Below, piece by piece: positions 2,448 to 44,268 of a stretch of 64,000 bases of DNA. The stretch comes from an uncultured Methanosarcinales archaeon (GTDB taxonomy: Archaea; Nanobdellota; Nanobdellia; Woesearchaeales; JASKKU01): the NCBI GenBank assembly GCA_964445165.1, contig CAYUJZ010000002.1, positions 1,737 through 65,736 on the forward strand. The letters run 5' to 3'. Every line of letters starts with the position of its first letter. Within the stretch, counting starts at the first letter, position 1. The notes below the pieces were generated by a model. The model was not told the DNA's origin. It saw only the letters and a list, made by a program, of their open reading frames with translations, and searched no databases. The position numbers were made by a program, and so were the translations under genes.

Positions 2448-2573
2448 TTTGAGATAAGCGCCAGGGGAGGGATTCGAACCCCCGCTCCCAAAGGGACAGG
2501 CTCTCAAGGCCTGCGCAATACCAGACTATGCGACCCTGGCTCAGGCAGAAGAGTCTAGCGAAGCTTTATAAGG
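2448..2573. repeat. 126-bp direct repeat, copy 1 (whole tRNA-Ser gene plus both flanks)
   Basis: Bases 2448-2573 (tttgagataagcgccagggg…gaagctttataagg) are identical to 4286-4411. Confidence 0.9.
2459..2540 (-). tRNA. tRNA-Ser (anticodon UGA), copy 1
   Basis: Reverse complement folds as a tRNA. Acceptor stem GCCAGGG/CCCTGGC is 7 bp. T-loop is TTCGAAT. Anticodon stem CAGGC/GCCTG with loop CTTGAGA gives anticodon TGA. A 13-nt variable arm (TCCCTTTGGGAGC) marks a class II tRNA. A TATA-like TTATAAAG sits about 25 nt upstream on the minus strand. Confidence 0.75.
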
Positions 2574-2591
2574 AATATTAAAAACAAAAAG

Positions 2592-4262
2592 TTAATCATT
2601 ACACCTACTTGAGTTAATAAGGAATAAATATGGCAAATCGGTATCCTGAAATAATTCAGTACAATTCATAAAATTTTTATAGAGAGAAATCCTTTCAAGA
2701 CTACTATAAATTGCTGTTATATTTCTCTTCAGAATGTATTGATCTAACGAATGATTATAAATATTTAATGCTGCTTGATGATTTACCACACCATCAAGAT
2801 TAACAACATTGAAAGATGAGAAAAAAGACAATCTCCCTGAATCAAAAGAACCAATTATTAAACTGTCATCAAACCTTAATTCAAGCTCTTTTAACTTTTC
2901 AAAGAAATCGGATTCTTCTTTATTGATTAGTATTAGATAGGAAGTCAGAAAACCTGAAATTACAATTAAAAAACATAAAATAAACCTCGAAGAAGAACTA
3001 AAGGATAATATTTGTCTTCTAGATACAAGAATCAAAGAGATTAGAATCAAAAAAGAGGGCGTAAGAATGTACCATATTTGAAAATGGGATATATAAAAAA
3101 TATAAAAAAAGGCCATTGCAAAGCCCAATAAAGCAAAAAACCAACAATTTCGAAAATCGTAACTAGTTGCTGGCTTAAATAACTTAACTAAAAGAATAAC
3201 ACAAAAAAGGAAGATCATAATTGATATGGAAAAATCAGTAAAGTTACTTCCAGCAAAACGAATTGGATCAAAATAAAAGCCTGGAAGCAGAAAAAGAGAT
3301 AAGAAGCAACAAAAAAACATTAAAAGATTCCCAATGTTTTTTTTATCTAAAAAAGTCTTCCTGGAAAAAGAAGGAAAGTTAATAAAAATTAAAGGAAATA
3401 ACAAAATCGAACCAAAAATGCTTAAGAACTTAAGTGGCCATACTGCTAAATTTGTCATTTTAGCCAAGTTTTGATGATTGTATGTTTCTCTATAAGAAAG
3501 AACCTTGCCTGATTCTTGCATAAATGAACCGAAATTCAAGTATGAGTACACAAACCAAGGGCTAATTAATATTAAAAAAAACAAAAAAGATAGCATAAAT
3601 TTTTTAATTTGATCTTTTGAAAGAACAATCCTTCTATTCTTATATAAATAAAAAAGGAAACATAAAAAGATGGGTATAATTGTATCACTTCTTGAGAGAA
3701 AACTCAATGCACCAAAAACACCAAGCAGAATAAAAAAGTATAATTTTTTATTTTCTGAATTTAACAGCTTTACAAAAAGATACAAAAACAAAGAAAAGAA
3801 GAATAATGCAAGAGGGGTTTCTACTCCTTGTTTAGAAATAAAAAAAACAAGAGGACTGGAAACCCATATTAAAAGGAACAATAAAGAAATAAAGTTGTTT
3901 CGTATTGTATTTTTTATAATTAAGTATCCAATAACTCCAGAACCTATGATTAAACAATGCATAAGTAAATGAGAAAGGATTTGAATTGCATTTTCCGATA
4001 AACCTGAAAAATTATAAATGAAAATCAAATACAAAAGGTACAGAGGATGGAAACCATTTGTTGTTGAGAAGCCATCACTGGTAATGAAGCCAAATTTTTC
4101 ATAATTTCTTGCCAGAACAAGATAATAATAAAAATCGTCAGAAATAAAACTTTCTCTTGAAGAAGGTTCAAAAAAAAAGAGAAAAAAACCTGAAAAAGAA
4201 AAGTAAAAAATAATTGATATCAAAGCGATATAAAATAGACACTTTTTTTCTTTTTTATTCAA
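2592..4262 (-). CDS. polytopic membrane protein, GT-C-fold glycosyltransferase-like (PMT/ArnT/YfhO-like), on a low-GC island
   Basis: 556 aa with more than 12 predicted TM helices. An N-terminal short loop is followed by a long hydrophobic core and a C-terminal soluble domain (…VVNLDGVVNHQAAL…). Composition is dominated by F/L/I/K/N/S/Y. Local GC is about 25-27% (hand count of 60-nt lines) against about 47% in the flanks. Confidence 0.45.
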   Translation of the reverse strand: MNKKEKKCLFYIALISIIFYFSFSGFFLFFFEPSSRESFISDDFYYYLVLARNYEKFGFITSDGFSTTNGFHPLYLLYLIFIYNFSGLSENAIQILSHLLMHCLIIGSGVIGYLIIKNTIRNNFISLLFLLIWVSSPLVFFISKQGVETPLALFFFSLFLYLFVKLLNSENKKLYFFILLGVFGALSFLSRSDTIIPIFLCFLFYLYKNRRIVLSKDQIKKFMLSFLFFLILISPWFVYSYLNFGSFMQESGKVLSYRETYNHQNLAKMTNLAVWPLKFLSIFGSILLFPLIFINFPSFSRKTFLDKKNIGNLLMFFCCFLSLFLLPGFYFDPIRFAGSNFTDFSISIMIFLFCVILLVKLFKPATSYDFRNCWFFALLGFAMAFFYIFYISHFQIWYILTPSFLILISLILVSRRQILSFSSSSRFILCFLIVISGFLTSYLILINKEESDFFEKLKELELRFDDSLIIGSFDSGRLSFFSSFNVVNLDGVVNHQAALNIYNHSLDQYILKRNITAIYSSLERISLYKNFMNCTELFQDTDLPYLFLINSSRCND

Positions 4263-4285
4263 TATTTGTCCCTCTCTTTAAGCGT

Positions 4286-4411
4286 TTTGAGATAAGCGCC
4301 AGGGGAGGGATTCGAACCCCCGCTCCCAAAGGGACAGGCTCTCAAGGCCTGCGCAATACCAGACTATGCGACCCTGGCTCAGGCAGAAGAGTCTAGCGAA
4401 GCTTTATAAGG
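4286..4411. repeat. 126-bp direct repeat, copy 2
   Basis: Identical to 2448-2573. Its last 19 bp encode the C-terminus (…LIKLR) and TAG stop of the HAD gene at 4393-5001. Confidence 0.9.
4297..4378 (-). tRNA. tRNA-Ser (anticodon UGA), copy 2
   Basis: Sequence identical to copy 1, with the same upstream TATA-like element. Confidence 0.75.
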
Positions 4412-36475: not shown

Positions 36476-37297
36476 TTGAAAGCCTCTGATAAGAAATTGA
36501 TGCTTCACTTTATAATTTCAGGAGTGATAGCTTTCTCAGTTATGCTTTCTTCTAATGCAATGGCGCAAGAATCCTGCCATGACACAGAAGGCAGAATTAA
36601 CTTTTACACCAGGGGCACTGTGTCCGGAATCGCTGATGGCAGGTTTTTTACTTTCACAGATTACTGTAAAGATGACACCCTGGCTGAGTTCTACTGCCAA
36701 AACAATGATGTAAAAAACTTGACATTCGAATGCGAGAATGGCTGTACCGATGGAAGGTGCATGCTTTGCACACCACTAGAGCAAAGATGTGCGGGAAATG
36801 TATTAGAAAGATGCAATGTATTCGGGACAGGCTGGTCGCACCACAGAAACTGCCCACGCGATTGTGAAGATGGAGAATGCGTTGAATTCAGAAGCAGCTC
36901 TAGCGACTTGGTTACCCTGCCTATTGAGCCAGACATCTGGCCTGTTCTTCCTACCTGCTATGACAGCGATGGGCAGGACTTTTACAATAAGGGCTATGTA
37001 GAGCACTCGGTTTACCGGTTTGGGAATTATCTTCAAGTCAGGAAATATGATTACTGCCAAGGAGATTTTTTGAATGAGCAGGTTTGTGCTATGGGAATGC
37101 CTTCATTCATAAGGCACAGGTGCGATTATGGCTGCCGTGACGGCGCCTGCTCTGAGCAAGCCAGCTTCTGGGGAACCTACTGGGACAATGGGTTTAGCCT
37201 TGAGCATGGCGGGATAAATCCCAATCAAAAAAACGAGGTTTATATTCAAAGGCGAGATTCTGCACATCCAAGCAAATATGAAGACAAATGCGTTTAG
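36476..37297 (+). CDS. secreted cysteine-rich repeat protein (C-x2-G-C-x-DG-x-C repeats)
   Basis: 273 aa. N-terminal signal peptide (…AFSVMLSSNAMAQES). At least 24 Cys, with repeated motifs CENGCTDGRC, CPRDCEDGEC and CDYGCRDGAC. The frame continues past TAG at 37295 for 61 more codons containing CPDGCNNGAC. Confidence 0.5.
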   Translation: MKASDKKLMLHFIISGVIAFSVMLSSNAMAQESCHDTEGRINFYTRGTVSGIADGRFFTFTDYCKDDTLAEFYCQNNDVKNLTFECENGCTDGRCMLCTPLEQRCAGNVLERCNVFGTGWSHHRNCPRDCEDGECVEFRSSSSDLVTLPIEPDIWPVLPTCYDSDGQDFYNKGYVEHSVYRFGNYLQVRKYDYCQGDFLNEQVCAMGMPSFIRHRCDYGCRDGACSEQASFWGTYWDNGFSLEHGGINPNQKNEVYIQRRDSAHPSKYEDKCV

Positions 37298-39072: not shown

Positions 39073-40578
39073 ATGGAAGAATTAAGTGTTCTGGAGCTTG
39101 CATTAAGGCTTTTCTACGTATTCCTGATAATTGTATGTGGGGTTTTGATATCCAGGCTTGCTTCCCGGGGCTTTGTTAAGCTAAGGAGGGTTGGAAGGGG
39201 CTCTTTTGACAATGGGAATGCCGGGATTTCGGGCATTGCAGAGAAGCTGATTGTGATTACTTCGCTGCTGATTGCGCTGGTATACCTGGGATTCTCTTCT
39301 TATGAGGCTATACTCTCGCCTTTTGTGGATGCTGTGCCAAGGGTTATAACTATTGTACTGCTGTTTGTTATTGGAGTATTTATTATAAACCTGATACTGA
39401 GCCTGATAAGGCTTTTTGTTTCTAAAACCGGCATTGAAGACTACCTAGTTGAGGAGGATTCTGTGCATATCCTAAGGATTTCGTTTATTATTGTCAAGAT
39501 GCTTTTGTACCTGCTGCTGATAAATGTTGTGGCGATTGCGTCTGATTTTCCTATGGTAAGAGAAGCTCTGGGAATGATAGTAATTCCTGCTGTGGTTCTT
39601 CTGATAGCTGTGCTGTTTGTGGGAATGATTAACCCGCTGAGGGATTATGTCGGGGGAGTTTACCTTAAGAATGTATATAAGCTTAAGCCCGGGGCTTCTG
39701 TTGAGTTTCAGGATAAGGGTTATGAGGTTGAAAGGGTGCATAACTTTCATACTGAGCTTGTTTCCAGGGATAACAGGCTTTTTGTGATTCCAAACAGAAT
39801 TCTTTCTGGGGGGATGATTGCGATTGGGAAAAGGGGCAGAGAGATAGAGAGCCTTGAGAGAATAAAGGAGAATTTTTATGCTCAGCTGCCTTCTTACTGC
39901 GGGCCTGCTTCTGCGCAGATTGTGCTTTCTTTCTTTGGGATTGAGTCTAAACAGGAGGAACTGGGCAGGCTGATGAAAACTATTACAAGAACCAAAGAAG
40001 ATGAGGCTGCCGGGACTCACCCGAAAGAGCTTATTTCTGCTGTTGAGGAGTTTACCAATAAAGAGGTAATTGGGTGCTGGCTGGATTATGATAAGATTAG
40101 CAACCTTAAGAAGGAGGCAAGGGAGTGGCTTGGCGAGGGTGCGCTGCTGATTGTTGACTACAAGAAGAAGTACCTCTTCCCAAATGCAAAGAGAGCGCAT
40201 TACTCTGTTGTGGTTGGTGTCAAGAGCGATGAGCTGCTGGTTGTTGACCCTTCGAGCAAGGCCGGAGGGGTTTATTTCTCTGACTATAGGGACATTGAGG
40301 CTGGAATGAATACTTACTCTAGGCTGATTCAGGGAAAAAGAGGCTATATTGTGCTTGCGCCTAAGGGAACCCCTGCGTACAGGAGAATTAAGGACGGGCT
40401 GGTTTACTCTGACATTAACATGTACCAGAAGGCCACTAAGGCCTTAAAGGACAAGCTGAACAAGTTTACGAGCTCAGTTACATTGTATGAGACTTTTCCT
40501 CCTTTCATCAGAAAGCACCTCAAGGATTTCGAGAGGGAGCAGGTCAGAAGGGTGTGGAAGCCAAACCAGAAAAAATAA
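39073..40578 (+). CDS. MscS-like mechanosensitive channel fused to a C-terminal peptidase-C39-like (papain-fold) domain
   Basis: 501 aa. About 5 TM helices, then an MscS beta-domain-like segment KPGASVEFQDKGYEVERVHNFHTELVSRDNRLFVIPNRIL. A C-terminal module carries a candidate catalytic Cys in QLPSYCGPASAQIVL and His/Asp in KRAHYSVVVGVKSDELLVVDP. Confidence 0.45.
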   Translation: MEELSVLELALRLFYVFLIIVCGVLISRLASRGFVKLRRVGRGSFDNGNAGISGIAEKLIVITSLLIALVYLGFSSYEAILSPFVDAVPRVITIVLLFVIGVFIINLILSLIRLFVSKTGIEDYLVEEDSVHILRISFIIVKMLLYLLLINVVAIASDFPMVREALGMIVIPAVVLLIAVLFVGMINPLRDYVGGVYLKNVYKLKPGASVEFQDKGYEVERVHNFHTELVSRDNRLFVIPNRILSGGMIAIGKRGREIESLERIKENFYAQLPSYCGPASAQIVLSFFGIESKQEELGRLMKTITRTKEDEAAGTHPKELISAVEEFTNKEVIGCWLDYDKISNLKKEAREWLGEGALLIVDYKKKYLFPNAKRAHYSVVVGVKSDELLVVDPSSKAGGVYFSDYRDIEAGMNTYSRLIQGKRGYIVLAPKGTPAYRRIKDGLVYSDINMYQKATKALKDKLNKFTSSVTLYETFPPFIRKHLKDFEREQVRRVWKPNQKK

Positions 40579-40603: not shown

Positions 40604-40942
40604 ATGGAAGAAGTATACAAAACATATGCCGGGGATTACCTTGGGATAATAAGGAAACTAACGGGCCTAAGCGGCATTATGGAAGTAAGAGTGCCTAACG
40701 ATATACTTAACTTTGCTGAAGAAGAAGGATTAACTGGCAAAGTAAGAATAGTCCCCTCTGAAGAGCCAGGATTAAGATTCTTATTACGCTGTCTGCCTAT
40801 CAATCCTGAAAGATTTGAGGAAGATATATACAAAGTAACAGGCATAGATGGAAATGTTATGTATGGTAACTGCAACTCTTCATATCACTTTTACATTCCA
40901 GGAAGTAAGTTGCCCATTGTTTTTGAAAGAGCTAATAAATAA
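40604..40942 (+). CDS. hypothetical protein
   Basis: 112-aa ORF 25 nt downstream of the MscS-C39 gene. No motif recognised. Confidence 0.3.
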   Translation: MEEVYKTYAGDYLGIIRKLTGLSGIMEVRVPNDILNFAEEEGLTGKVRIVPSEEPGLRFLLRCLPINPERFEEDIYKVTGIDGNVMYGNCNSSYHFYIPGSKLPIVFERANK

Positions 40943-42849: not shown

Positions 42850-43542
42850 CTAAAGAGTGGTAACTTGTTTTTCTAAGAGAGTTCCTTTGTATTTTTTTCC
42901 GGCCAAGAATGCTTTTATGCTCCTGAAATCCCTGCCATTTATGATTGCTACTTTAATGCTGTTCTTCCTGCAGAACTCTGCTGCCACAGGGTCAAACGGG
43001 CAGTTCATCCCTGGTGAGAAAAGGGGGAACATAGAAAGGTATTCCTGCCAGCTGGCTTTTTTAATTGGGTTTGCATCCTGATGGGTAGAAGGATTTTTAT
43101 CATAAAGAAAATCCACATTGGTCAGGTTAAGCACAATGCCAGTGCTGTAGGTTTTTGCGCAGGCTGCTGCCACATAATCAGAGGAAAAGCCTGGCTTGTA
43201 TCCTGAGTAGATAAGAATGCTCTCTTTTGCTTTTGCCTTTTTGAAAGGGTTTGAAAGAGTCTTTTTATAAGCATAGCTTGAGAAACATCGCTTTACCAGC
43301 CCTGCATTCAGGCGGGTTGCCTCTATTCCGAGCCAGTCTAGCTGTGATGGGTCTTTTATTCCGAGCTTTTTTCCTGCTGTTATGTATGACCTTGCGGTCC
43401 TGCCTCCACCTACAACTACAATAAGCCTGGTTTTTTGTGAGATTTTTTCAGCAAATCTTGCAAAATCATTTATAAAATCAGTATCCGGAAAGCTGCTTGA
43501 GAAAATAAGAGATCCCCCCAGGGAAAGTATTGCTGTCTTCAT
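42850..43542 (-). CDS. pyrH: UMP kinase (archaeal PyrH, amino-acid-kinase fold)
   Basis: MKTAILSLGGSLI…VVVGGGRTARSYI…GIEATRLNAGLV are the signature motifs of archaeal UMP kinases. The start is taken at the internal ATG (43542), which overlaps the stop of the upstream gene by 4 nt. The ORF track extends further, to 43650. Confidence 0.7.
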   Translation of the reverse strand: MKTAILSLGGSLIFSSSFPDTDFINDFARFAEKISQKTRLIVVVGGGRTARSYITAGKKLGIKDPSQLDWLGIEATRLNAGLVKRCFSSYAYKKTLSNPFKKAKAKESILIYSGYKPGFSSDYVAAACAKTYSTGIVLNLTNVDFLYDKNPSTHQDANPIKKASWQEYLSMFPLFSPGMNCPFDPVAAEFCRKNSIKVAIINGRDFRSIKAFLAGKKYKGTLLEKQVTTL

Positions 43543-43892
43543 TTCGACATGCCTACAAGGATTACTCCAATTATGATAAGCAGTATAGCAGCAAGCTTTT
43601 TTCTCCCAACCTTTTCCTTGAGAAAAAAGACTGACAAAATAACAGTCCATATGTAAGAAAGGGAAGTTATAGGGTATGCAATTGAAACAGGCAGCACTTT
43701 TAGAGATGGAATGAACACAATCGTTGAGAAGAAGTAAAGTACAAAGCCTAAGATCACTGTATGGTTTGATAAGAGTGTCTTCAGCGAAAACCTGCCAGAG
43801 CCTTTCTTTAGCATAAGCGCCCCAAAACTTCCAAGGACTGTGGATAATACGACAAGCCCAACTGCACTGATAAAGCTAGCCAAGTGGGCCAC
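43539..43892 (-). CDS. small 4-TM DMT/SMR-like transporter subunit
   Basis: 117 aa with 4 TM helices and an EamA/SMR-like hydrophobic pattern. Paired with the adjacent homologous gene. Confidence 0.45.
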   Translation of the reverse strand: MAHLASFISAVGLVVLSTVLGSFGALMLKKGSGRFSLKTLLSNHTVILGFVLYFFSTIVFIPSLKVLPVSIAYPITSLSYIWTVILSVFFLKEKVGRKKLAAILLIIIGVILVGMSK

Positions 43893-44268
43893 CCCCTTCT
43901 TTTGCCGGGACTGGCTTTGAAGCCTGGCTTAAAACGAAAATGCCTGAAAAAATCGTAATAATTCCAGCTATTTTGAGAAGGCTCAGGGCTTCTTCGAAAA
44001 TAAAGAAAGAAAGCACTGCAACCCAGATAAAGCCTGAGGCAATGATTGGGTATACTATAGAAAGCTCTGCTCTCTTCAGCGCTGTTATGAGAAGCAGGGC
44101 AGAAAGGAAGTAAAGAAATAATGCACCTAATAATGGAAAGTTTGTAATAAGCACAAATGGATTGAGGGAAAACTCTTCTGAAGAAACCTTAAAAAGCATC
44201 TGGGCAATTGAATTCAGGAATGTTGAGAAGAATACAATTCCGAGAACCGAGCCTTTCATTGCTACCAA
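43876..44268 (-). CDS. small 4-TM DMT/SMR-like transporter subunit
   Basis: 130 aa with 4 TM helices. Overlaps its partner by 17 nt, the arrangement of paired SMR systems such as EbrAB/YkkCD. Confidence 0.45.
   Translation of the reverse strand: MVAMKGSVLGIVFFSTFLNSIAQMLFKVSSEEFSLNPFVLITNFPLLGALFLYFLSALLLITALKRAELSIVYPIIASGFIWVAVLSFFIFEEALSLLKIAGIITIFSGIFVLSQASKPVPAKEGGGPLG

Follow-up and report, generated by a model that had tools for sequence, protein, structure and literature searches.

Channels of the MscS superfamily (MscS, YnaI, MscM, MscK, MSL1 and MSL10) are built from the transmembrane (TM) helices TM1-TM2 and TM3a/TM3b and a β-domain, followed by an α-β domain and a C-terminal β-barrel, and all solved relatives share an N-out, C-in orientation in the membrane. 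Family members with sensory or regulatory add-ons are known, and MscCG of Corynebacterium reportedly shows that MscS relatives can export glutamate. Here we describe a gene in a 64,000-nucleotide stretch of archaeal DNA (contig CAYUJZ010000002.1, positions 1,737 to 65,736; hereafter the window), whose product has homologous TM1-TM2, TM3a/TM3b and β-domain elements and a predicted topology like that of the superfamily, but neither the α-β domain nor the barrel; instead, an enzyme of the papain-fold cysteine peptidase type follows the β-domain. To our knowledge, an enzyme fusion is not on record for any other MscS relative. An earlier reading of this stretch (the original prediction) held that such an architecture is not a described one. 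This is true of the searchable literature, in which searches aimed at the fusion or at MscS in DPANN archaea gave no description of the fusion, whereas public records already hold such proteins. An MscS version with a catalytically intact enzyme in place of the cytoplasmic cage therefore appears not to have been described before.

For the enzymatic half, the nearest described protein is Nostoc Alr0975 (NsPCS; MEROPS family C83, clan CA), which is not membrane-tethered; enzymes of the phytochelatin-synthase type react with small acidic γ-glutamyl peptides to give acyl-enzyme intermediates (PMC3855540). The C39 domains of the ABC exporters ComA and PCAT1 are alike in their papain fold, in the catalytic Cys within a Q...CG motif, and in being fused on the cytoplasmic side to a membrane transport module. 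In those exporters, however, the peptidase is N-terminal, an ABC ATPase is present and a double-glycine precursor gene accompanies the transporter, whereas the protein described here has a C-terminal peptidase, no ABC ATPase and no such precursor gene found near it. At the level of operons, RimB, the partner peptidase of the ligase RimK, removes glutamate tails, and a role in setting the glutamate/poly-glutamate balance has been proposed for it (PMC11957051); the Pseudomonas rloABC operon, encoding an ATP-grasp protein, a 7-TM transglutaminase-like protein and a peptidase, is required for hypo-osmotic tolerance (PMC11957051).

A papain-fold peptidase occupies the position of the MscS cage

That an MscS-superfamily module and an intact papain-fold enzyme are combined in one conserved membrane protein is, in our judgement, close to certain. 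The gene opens with an ATG codon in the open reading frame (ORF) listing of the window and encodes 501 residues (Table 1). An AlphaFold2 (AF2) model of the protein, with a mean predicted local distance difference test (pLDDT) score of 81 and a predicted template-modelling (pTM) score of 0.58, contains long helices at aa 6-40, 50-71, 77-119, 131-157 and 160-200, matching the five TM segments found by a hydropathy scan, with the first TM helix placed at about aa 6-30. After these helices the model shows a small β domain (aa 209-251) and an α/β domain (aa 261-430); the tail behind them is helical and has a terminal strand.

The assignment of the membrane part becomes clear at the level of the family, for which 39 aligned homologues were used in all Pfam and conservation counts. 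On the single sequence, the MscS β-domain family PF00924 scores 18.6 bits against a cutoff of 20.2 (aa 188-245) and the MscS TM helix family PF05552 (MS_channel_1st_1) 18.9 bits against 22 (aa 79-122), whereas 33 of the 39 members match the former (best E 5e-12) and 25 the latter (best E 1.6e-12). Searched against solved structures, the family profile finds E. coli MscS (E 9e-12) through two separate segments, one covering TM1-TM2 (Table 1) and the other aligning profile positions 170-254 with MscS 94-179, that is TM3a/TM3b and the β-domain; with YnaI and MscM, which are 5-TM relatives, the alignment is a single stretch. The MscS structure 7dlu is also matched by phmmer at 5e-5, and Foldseek of the AF2 model likewise matches MscS, YnaI and MSL10. 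Within TM3b, a conserved D/N191 (Asp in the window protein) and G195 stand opposite MscS N117 and G121.

No match to the α-β cage family PF21082 was found in the window protein or in the 39 family members. The peptidase starts ~15 residues past the β-domain, exactly at the position of the MscS α-β cage, and thus replaces both the α-β cage domain and the C-terminal barrel of the MscS-type module. The about five TM helices and the MscS β-domain-like segment named in the original prediction are therefore borne out by hydropathy, AF2, family-level Pfam and the profile match to MscS, with the amendment that the module is truncated: TM helices and β-domain are present, while cage and barrel have been replaced.

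Cage-less MscS relatives exist, so the cage domain is not universal to the superfamily. Solved chains of 171-174 aa (9bgq and 9sdg among them), named as MscS-type channels, match the family profile over profile positions ~172-258, and DPANN proteins of 273-285 aa (P0145; L039:7288-8145) have the same make-up of TM helices and β-domain; these short proteins end after the β-domain, whereas the window protein continues into the peptidase and a tail. Of the stand-alone short MscS-like proteins (in L007:2055-6100 and at L039:7288-8145), one has osmolyte genes as neighbours, which encode a canonical three-domain MscS, an inositol monophosphatase and a TreT-like glycosyltransferase, and others lie between TrkH and eS6 genes, near the fusion gene.

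Charge distribution across the family shows an acidic N-terminus, a TM1-TM2 loop with a mean of 6.8 Lys/Arg residues and a basic segment past TM5. The positive-inside rule together with the homology to MscS therefore places the peptidase domain in the cytoplasm, giving a predicted N-out, C-in topology. For the same reasons an extracellular, wall-cleaving role, prompted by a fold match to the pseudomurein endoisopeptidase PeiR, was set aside.

The catalytic residues of the peptidase are intact

Peptidase_C39_2 (PF13529, clan Peptidase_CA) is the sole Pfam family to match the window protein above its cutoff, at 37.5 bits against 24 (aa 268-393), and all 39 family members match it. Peptidase_C39 (PF03412) reaches 19.1 bits against a cutoff of 22 (aa 276-396) and is matched by 32 of 39 members at E<=0.01; the phytochelatin synthase family PF05023 reaches 13.2 bits against 24.9 (aa 260-425), with weak matches in 22 of 39. 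Profile checks with PF00924, PF03412 and PF13529, proposed with the original prediction, thus find both halves when the family is considered, although the single sequence passes PF13529 only.

In a Foldseek search against the PDB, the best match is Nostoc Alr0975 (E 4e-8, target-normalised TM-score 0.62-0.69 over ~200 residues), followed in order by PeiR, by MscS, YnaI and MSL10, and by the C39 domains of ComA and PCAT1. A profile built from the C-terminal halves of the family and searched against solved structures gives Alr0975 at E 2.4e-10, PeiR at 0.007 and ComA at 0.09, so that Alr0975 is the best match of aa 266-430 in both structure and sequence. In the profile alignment, Q271, C276, H376 and D392 are in register with Alr0975 Gln64, Cys70, His183 and Asp201, in a numbering that we checked against PMC3855540. 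At the column of Cys276, the glutathione-bound Alr0975 chain 6tjl has a Ser and the other Alr0975 chains have a Cys. In addition, K365, at least 90% conserved in the family, aligns with NsPCS Arg173, the equivalent of AtPCS1 Arg152, which is essential for activity (PMC3855540), and a C-terminal 'RGF/RGY' strand is common to both proteins. The two differ in a long loop after the first helices of NsPCS, which the fusion protein does not have. Furthermore, PF05023 stays below its cutoff, and two strictly conserved residues of phytochelatin synthases, discussed below, are unmatched in register.

The catalytic Cys lies in the motif QLPSYC(276)GPASAQIVL, and the His and Asp in KRAH(376)YSVVVGVKSDELLVVD(392)P. 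Conservation of the set is nearly complete, with Gln271 and His376 in 38 of 39 members and Cys276 and Asp392 in all 39. These are the same Cys and downstream His/Asp on which the original prediction of a C-terminal papain-like peptidase relied, and that part of it stands. Its C39-like label needs qualification: the Peptidase_C39_2 match supports it, but PF03412 remains below cutoff and the domain is nearer to phytochelatin-synthase-like (C83) enzymes. From the alignments, we assign aa 266-430 to a clan-CA papain-fold domain of the C39_2 kind, nearest the phytochelatin-synthase branch but a bona fide member of neither the C83 nor the bacteriocin C39 family.

With its Gln-Cys-His-Asp set intact, the domain is apparently an active cysteine peptidase or transpeptidase. 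Conservation is highest in the peptidase domain (mean majority fraction 0.63) and lowest in the TM part (~0.40), which fits an active enzyme. Behind the peptidase, the C-terminal tail of ~70 aa has invariant A435, Y451 and W495 and at least 90% conserved R493 and P497; in the AF2 model its helices have a low pLDDT of ~53-56, and a strand covers aa 491-495.

The fusion is a single gene of DPANN archaea

A word-indexed database search recovered the protein itself at 100% identity together with 87 homologues ~500 aa long, the named ones from Woesearchaeota, Nanoarchaeota and Aenigmarchaeota. Their public labels are 'hypothetical', 'C39 family peptidase' or 'mechanosensitive ion channel', the latter two each covering half of the protein. 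An exhaustive profile search of 1.8 billion cluster representatives gave ~50 full-length clusters (at 50% identity), next fragments and finally a large number of ~170-290-aa proteins whose match is confined to profile positions ~5-255, covering the TM helices and β-domain, one of them a 273-aa Aenigmarchaeota 'mechanosensitive ion channel'.

Scanning GTDB with one genome per species, we obtained 109 loci, of which 80 were kept for neighbourhood work. They carry the labels Woesearchaeota, Nanobdellota/Nanoarchaeota, Nanohaloarchaeota (Nanosalina, Nanohalobium), Aenigmatarchaeota, Iainarchaeota/Diapherotrites and Asbonarchaeum; some metagenome-assembled genomes (MAGs) are nominally 'uncultured Methanosarcinales'. 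Among labelled genomes, the fusion family is almost restricted to DPANN archaea. Since the genomes of these archaea are minimal, a gene that they retain probably matters to them. The nearest locus, L008 from a Woesearchaeota MAG, has 85% identity and an identical gene order, which makes a Woesearchaeota genome the most likely source of the window.

The gene is an uninterrupted single ORF of ~500 aa in 78 of the 80 loci, and also in many metagenome assemblies. The recurrence of the same intact ORF in independent loci and assemblies excludes a missed stop or frameshift, as the original prediction of one gene required, and refutes the reading that two genes were joined by a sequencing or assembly error, the probability of which we regard as practically nil.

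RimK-family ligase genes adjoin the fusion gene in other DPANN phyla

To characterise the gene neighbourhood, ORFs were called in all 80 loci and clustered by all-against-all BLASTP, and the loci were counted per cluster. The commonest cluster other than the fusion itself contains proteins of ~270-300 aa and occurs in 31 loci. In 29 of 78 loci, all 29 from DPANN phyla other than that of the window, RimK-family genes lie directly 3' of the fusion gene and share its strand. In 25 of these loci they are the next called genes, overlapping the fusion gene or beginning 7-52 nt past its stop; in the 4 further loci a small opposite-strand ORF call intervenes. There are usually two and sometimes three tandem paralogues. 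The second scores 153 bits with TIGR00768 (RimK family alpha-L-glutamate ligase; rimK_fam) against a cutoff of 143, the third nearly reaches the cutoff at 142.5 bits and the first has diverged. A RimK domain is likewise detected by Pfam. The unit of fusion and RimK genes occurs in Aenigmatarchaeota, Nanohaloarchaeota and Iainarchaeota/Diapherotrites with flanks that differ per phylum, which argues for a functional link over inherited synteny alone.

Two further genes recur, usually on the opposite strand just past the ligases: a YheC/D-like ATP-grasp gene (11 loci) and a gene for a 345-aa P-loop protein (16 loci), for which Pfam, NCBIfam and PDB searches gave no identification. The Nanosalina locus L079, for example, contains the fusion gene, two RimK-like genes and the YheC/D-like and P-loop genes. 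In Nanohaloarchaeota, TrkA, TrkH, eS6 and aIF2-γ genes lie upstream of the module, and a Kef-like exchanger is recurrent. In one Woesearchaeota locus (L056) a module-type RimK gene is adjacent but convergent. A 'RimK' pair 7 kb from the fusion gene in another (L024) proved to be LysX/ArgX and was dropped from the module count.

The window's own clade is arranged differently. A class-II prolyl-tRNA synthetase gene is the divergent upstream neighbour and a tryptophanyl-tRNA synthetase gene lies downstream; among the close relatives there are no conserved neighbours, these two synthetase genes flanking the fusion gene only in the clade of the window. The 112-aa ORF reported 25 nt downstream is indeed present, starting at 40604, and was rejected as a conserved partner, being found only in the 85%-identical relative L008.

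Several neighbouring genes deserve mention in their own right. In L005:2401-8869 (and also in L006) the fusion gene, three RimK/GSH-S-like ATP-grasp genes, a stand-alone C39_2 paralogue (P0138) and a Kef-like Na_H_Exchanger+TrkA_N gene lie side by side. P0138, at 236 aa, is 24% identical to the C-terminal domain of the window protein, and a search of the word-indexed database with it returned only P0138 itself. When the vicinity of the ligases was scanned for a small acidic carrier like LysW, ribosomal protein eS6 was the only one to emerge. In Nanohaloarchaeota its gene is the second one upstream of the fusion and RimK module (L072:6970-7347, L074:8156-8527, L079:8089-8466, L070:8357-8728, L076:7988-8356 and L083:8183-8554). 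The C-termini of these Nanohaloarchaeota eS6 proteins are acidic tails encoded in the gene, such as ...GEEEEEE, ...SEEEEE or ...LLEEE. Bacterial RimK glutamylates the C-terminus of bS6, a protein unrelated to eS6; the acidic tail near the module may be a coincidence, a consequence of halophile acidity or a real hint at a substrate.

The aIF2-γ gene adjoins the module in Aenigmatarchaeota (L034, L038, L058, L067) and in Nanohaloarchaeota loci, in what may be an aIF2-γ/eS6/RpoE'-like array. An ATP-grasp protein, CDC123, is linked to eIF2-γ in a published analysis (PMC4431377). Finally, in a Woesearchaeota subgroup a CARDB-domain surface protein of ~890 aa follows the fusion gene (L027:11543-14206 and equivalents in L032, L035 and L044), and a 476-aa family with no Pfam match occurs in L027, L032 and L035, but not L044, and in 9 loci overall.

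A possible link between glutamyl peptides and osmotic release

The original prediction put forward, as a hypothesis, that the fusion might couple envelope stress to proteolysis. The operon link with RimK leads us to a hypothesis that joins peptide (oligo-glutamate) metabolism to osmotic release. We propose that the protein is an MscS-type pore carrying a ring of peptidases that act on glutamyl peptides and are coupled to osmotic release, and we give this whole chain a probability of roughly 0.4. Going by what is known of other MscS relatives, the protein would assemble as a heptamer, which would place a ring of seven peptidase domains under a tension-sensitive pore. There, the peptidase would hydrolyse or transfer short acidic (glutamyl) peptides or oligo-glutamate tails at the pore mouth. 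Judging from the neighbourhood in other DPANN phyla, these peptide substrates may be made by the co-operonic RimK-family ligases, and the pool of glutamate and oligo-glutamate, a polyanion, would thereby be tied to osmotic release in a 'cut-and-release' scheme. As the ligase genes are unlinked in the Woesearchaeota clade of the window, the substrate is assigned here through orthology only.

The nearest parallels are RimK/RimB and rloABC, in which a RimK-type ligase, a peptidase and a papain/transglutaminase-fold membrane protein are likewise combined and likewise linked to glutamate or poly-glutamate and to hypo-osmotic tolerance (PMC11957051). However, the rloABC peptidase is a retropepsin, its periplasmic transglutaminase-like domain is inactive and its membrane part is not MscS-like (PMC11957051), whereas the protein described here unites an apparently active cysteine peptidase and an MscS module in one chain. 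If our proposal is true, the recently reported link between RimK-like proteins and hypo-osmotic tolerance would extend from bacteria to archaea. A more specific form of it, an enzyme-coupled osmotic valve, would have the seven peptidases depolymerise ligase-made oligo-glutamate, a non-permeant, K+-buffering polyanion, into pore-permeant glutamate. We think this version unlikely as it stands; were it true, the valve would amount to a polymer-buffered osmolyte system in DPANN archaea, with synthesis by RimK-like ligases, breakdown and release in one operon.

A number of observations weigh against the proposed coupling of peptidase and pore. The TM3a equivalents of MscS G101, A102, G104 and G108 are bulky residues, where MscS has Gly/Ala packing, and because of this replacement we speak of conduction conditionally; the equivalents of the Leu gate positions L105 and L109 are hydrophobic. 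On the enzymatic side, NsPCS Lys206 and Tyr207, strictly conserved in phytochelatin synthases, stand opposite A397 and G398. A tblastn search across the 64-kb window detected none of the RimK-like, YheC/D-like, P-loop, Trk, Kef or 'c8' genes, and the RimK linkage is missing in the closest relatives (36-85% identity). The loss of the pore-packing Gly/Ala motif favours the main rival, in which a non-conducting MscS-like part would serve as an anchor or heptamerisation platform, and the cytoplasmic peptidase would trim RimK-added glutamate tails on proteins, a reversible glutamylation like that of RimK/RimB. The high conservation of the peptidase and the low conservation of the TM parts agree with this, as do the precedents of RimK/RimB and of the membrane transglutaminase-like RloB, and the position of the Nanohaloarchaeota module near an eS6 gene whose product has an encoded poly-Glu/Asp tail. 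An idle membrane anchor would, however, sit poorly with the retention across the family of the β-domain and of the TM3b positions aligned to MscS N117 and G121, and with the stand-alone short homologues found among osmolyte and K+ transport genes; on balance we consider it a serious, if rather unlikely, contender.

The missing ligase partner in the window's own clade could also mean that the protein is an MscS-type osmotic valve whose gating is tuned by the papain-fold domain, acting either in autoprocessing or as a sensor of a ligand, redox state or thiols, with no separate substrate pathway. Such tuning would have ample company, since gating is commonly regulated by cytoplasmic domains of MscS relatives. 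Yet the full Gln-Cys-His-Asp set and the basic substrate-binding residue are present in 38-39 of 39 members, which points to turnover catalysis, and the tight operon linkage with ligases recurs in three phyla, making a purely regulatory domain distinctly unlikely in our view. We find it highly improbable that the protein works as a PCAT-like exporter, in which the peptidase would cut the leader from a small peptide, ribosomal or ATP-grasp-made, and the product would leave through the MscS-like pore. Its fold does resemble the ComA and PCAT1 peptidase domains, the Peptidase_C39 family is matched by most members, and in both cases a peptidase is joined to a membrane transport module. But solved C39 structures are far weaker matches to the domain profile than Alr0975 (0.09 vs 2e-10), no conserved small precursor gene was found, the 112-aa ORF being private to the clade and the scan for small acidic ORFs giving only eS6, and the fusion protein is without an energy-coupling domain.

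Features of the gene and of the surrounding window

The coordinates of the fusion gene and its parts are collected in Table 1.

Table 1 Parts of the fusion gene in window coordinates, with the basis of each assignment.
Feature	Position	Strand	Basis
Whole gene, MscS-like / papain-fold peptidase fusion, 501 aa	39073..40578 (including stop codon)	+	ORF listing, homologues, AF2
TM1-TM2, aa 6-71, equivalent to MscS TM1-TM2; strongly basic and hence cytoplasmic loop between	39088..39285	+	family profile 7-80 vs MscS 27-97
TM3-TM4, aa 77-157, extra helix pair as in 5-TM YnaI	39301..39543	+	hydropathy, AF2, Pfam MS_channel_1st_1
TM5, aa 160-200, equivalent to pore-lining MscS TM3a/TM3b	39550..39672	+	profile-to-MscS alignment, family column counts
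MscS β-domain, aa 201-252	39673..39828	+	Pfam PF00924, phmmer, Foldseek
Papain-fold cysteine peptidase domain, aa 266-430, Peptidase_C39_2 / phytochelatin-synthase-like	39868..40362	+	PF13529, Foldseek, domain profile
Gln271 codon, oxyanion-hole Gln, aligned with NsPCS Gln64	39883..39885	+	conservation, Alr0975 alignment
Cys276 codon, predicted catalytic nucleophile, aligned with NsPCS Cys70	39898..39900	+	conservation, Alr0975 alignment
His376 codon, predicted catalytic His, aligned with NsPCS His183	40198..40200	+	conservation, Alr0975 alignment
Asp392 codon, predicted third triad residue, aligned with NsPCS Asp201	40246..40248	+	conservation, Alr0975 alignment
Conserved C-terminal tail, aa 431-501, helices and final strand with R493-x-W495-x-P497 motif	40363..40575	+	conservation, AF2

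Elsewhere in the window, two identical tRNA-Ser(UGA) genes lie on the minus strand at 2458-2540 and 4296-4378, their identity continuing for ~19 nt beyond the 5' ends and 13 nt beyond the 3' ends. Between the copies is a 556-aa ORF (2592-4262, minus strand) of low GC content (0.33) and with no Pfam match; the whole arrangement (2458-4378) resembles the outcome of an insertion that duplicated its tRNA target, or of a local duplication. Upstream of the prolyl-tRNA synthetase gene, positions 36476-37297 encode a Cys-rich protein of 273 aa that has a hydrophobic segment at its N-terminal end and matches no Pfam family significantly. Two tandem, overlapping genes at 43539-44268 encode small membrane proteins of the EamA/SMR type (117 and 130 aa), which are probably a paired half-transporter.

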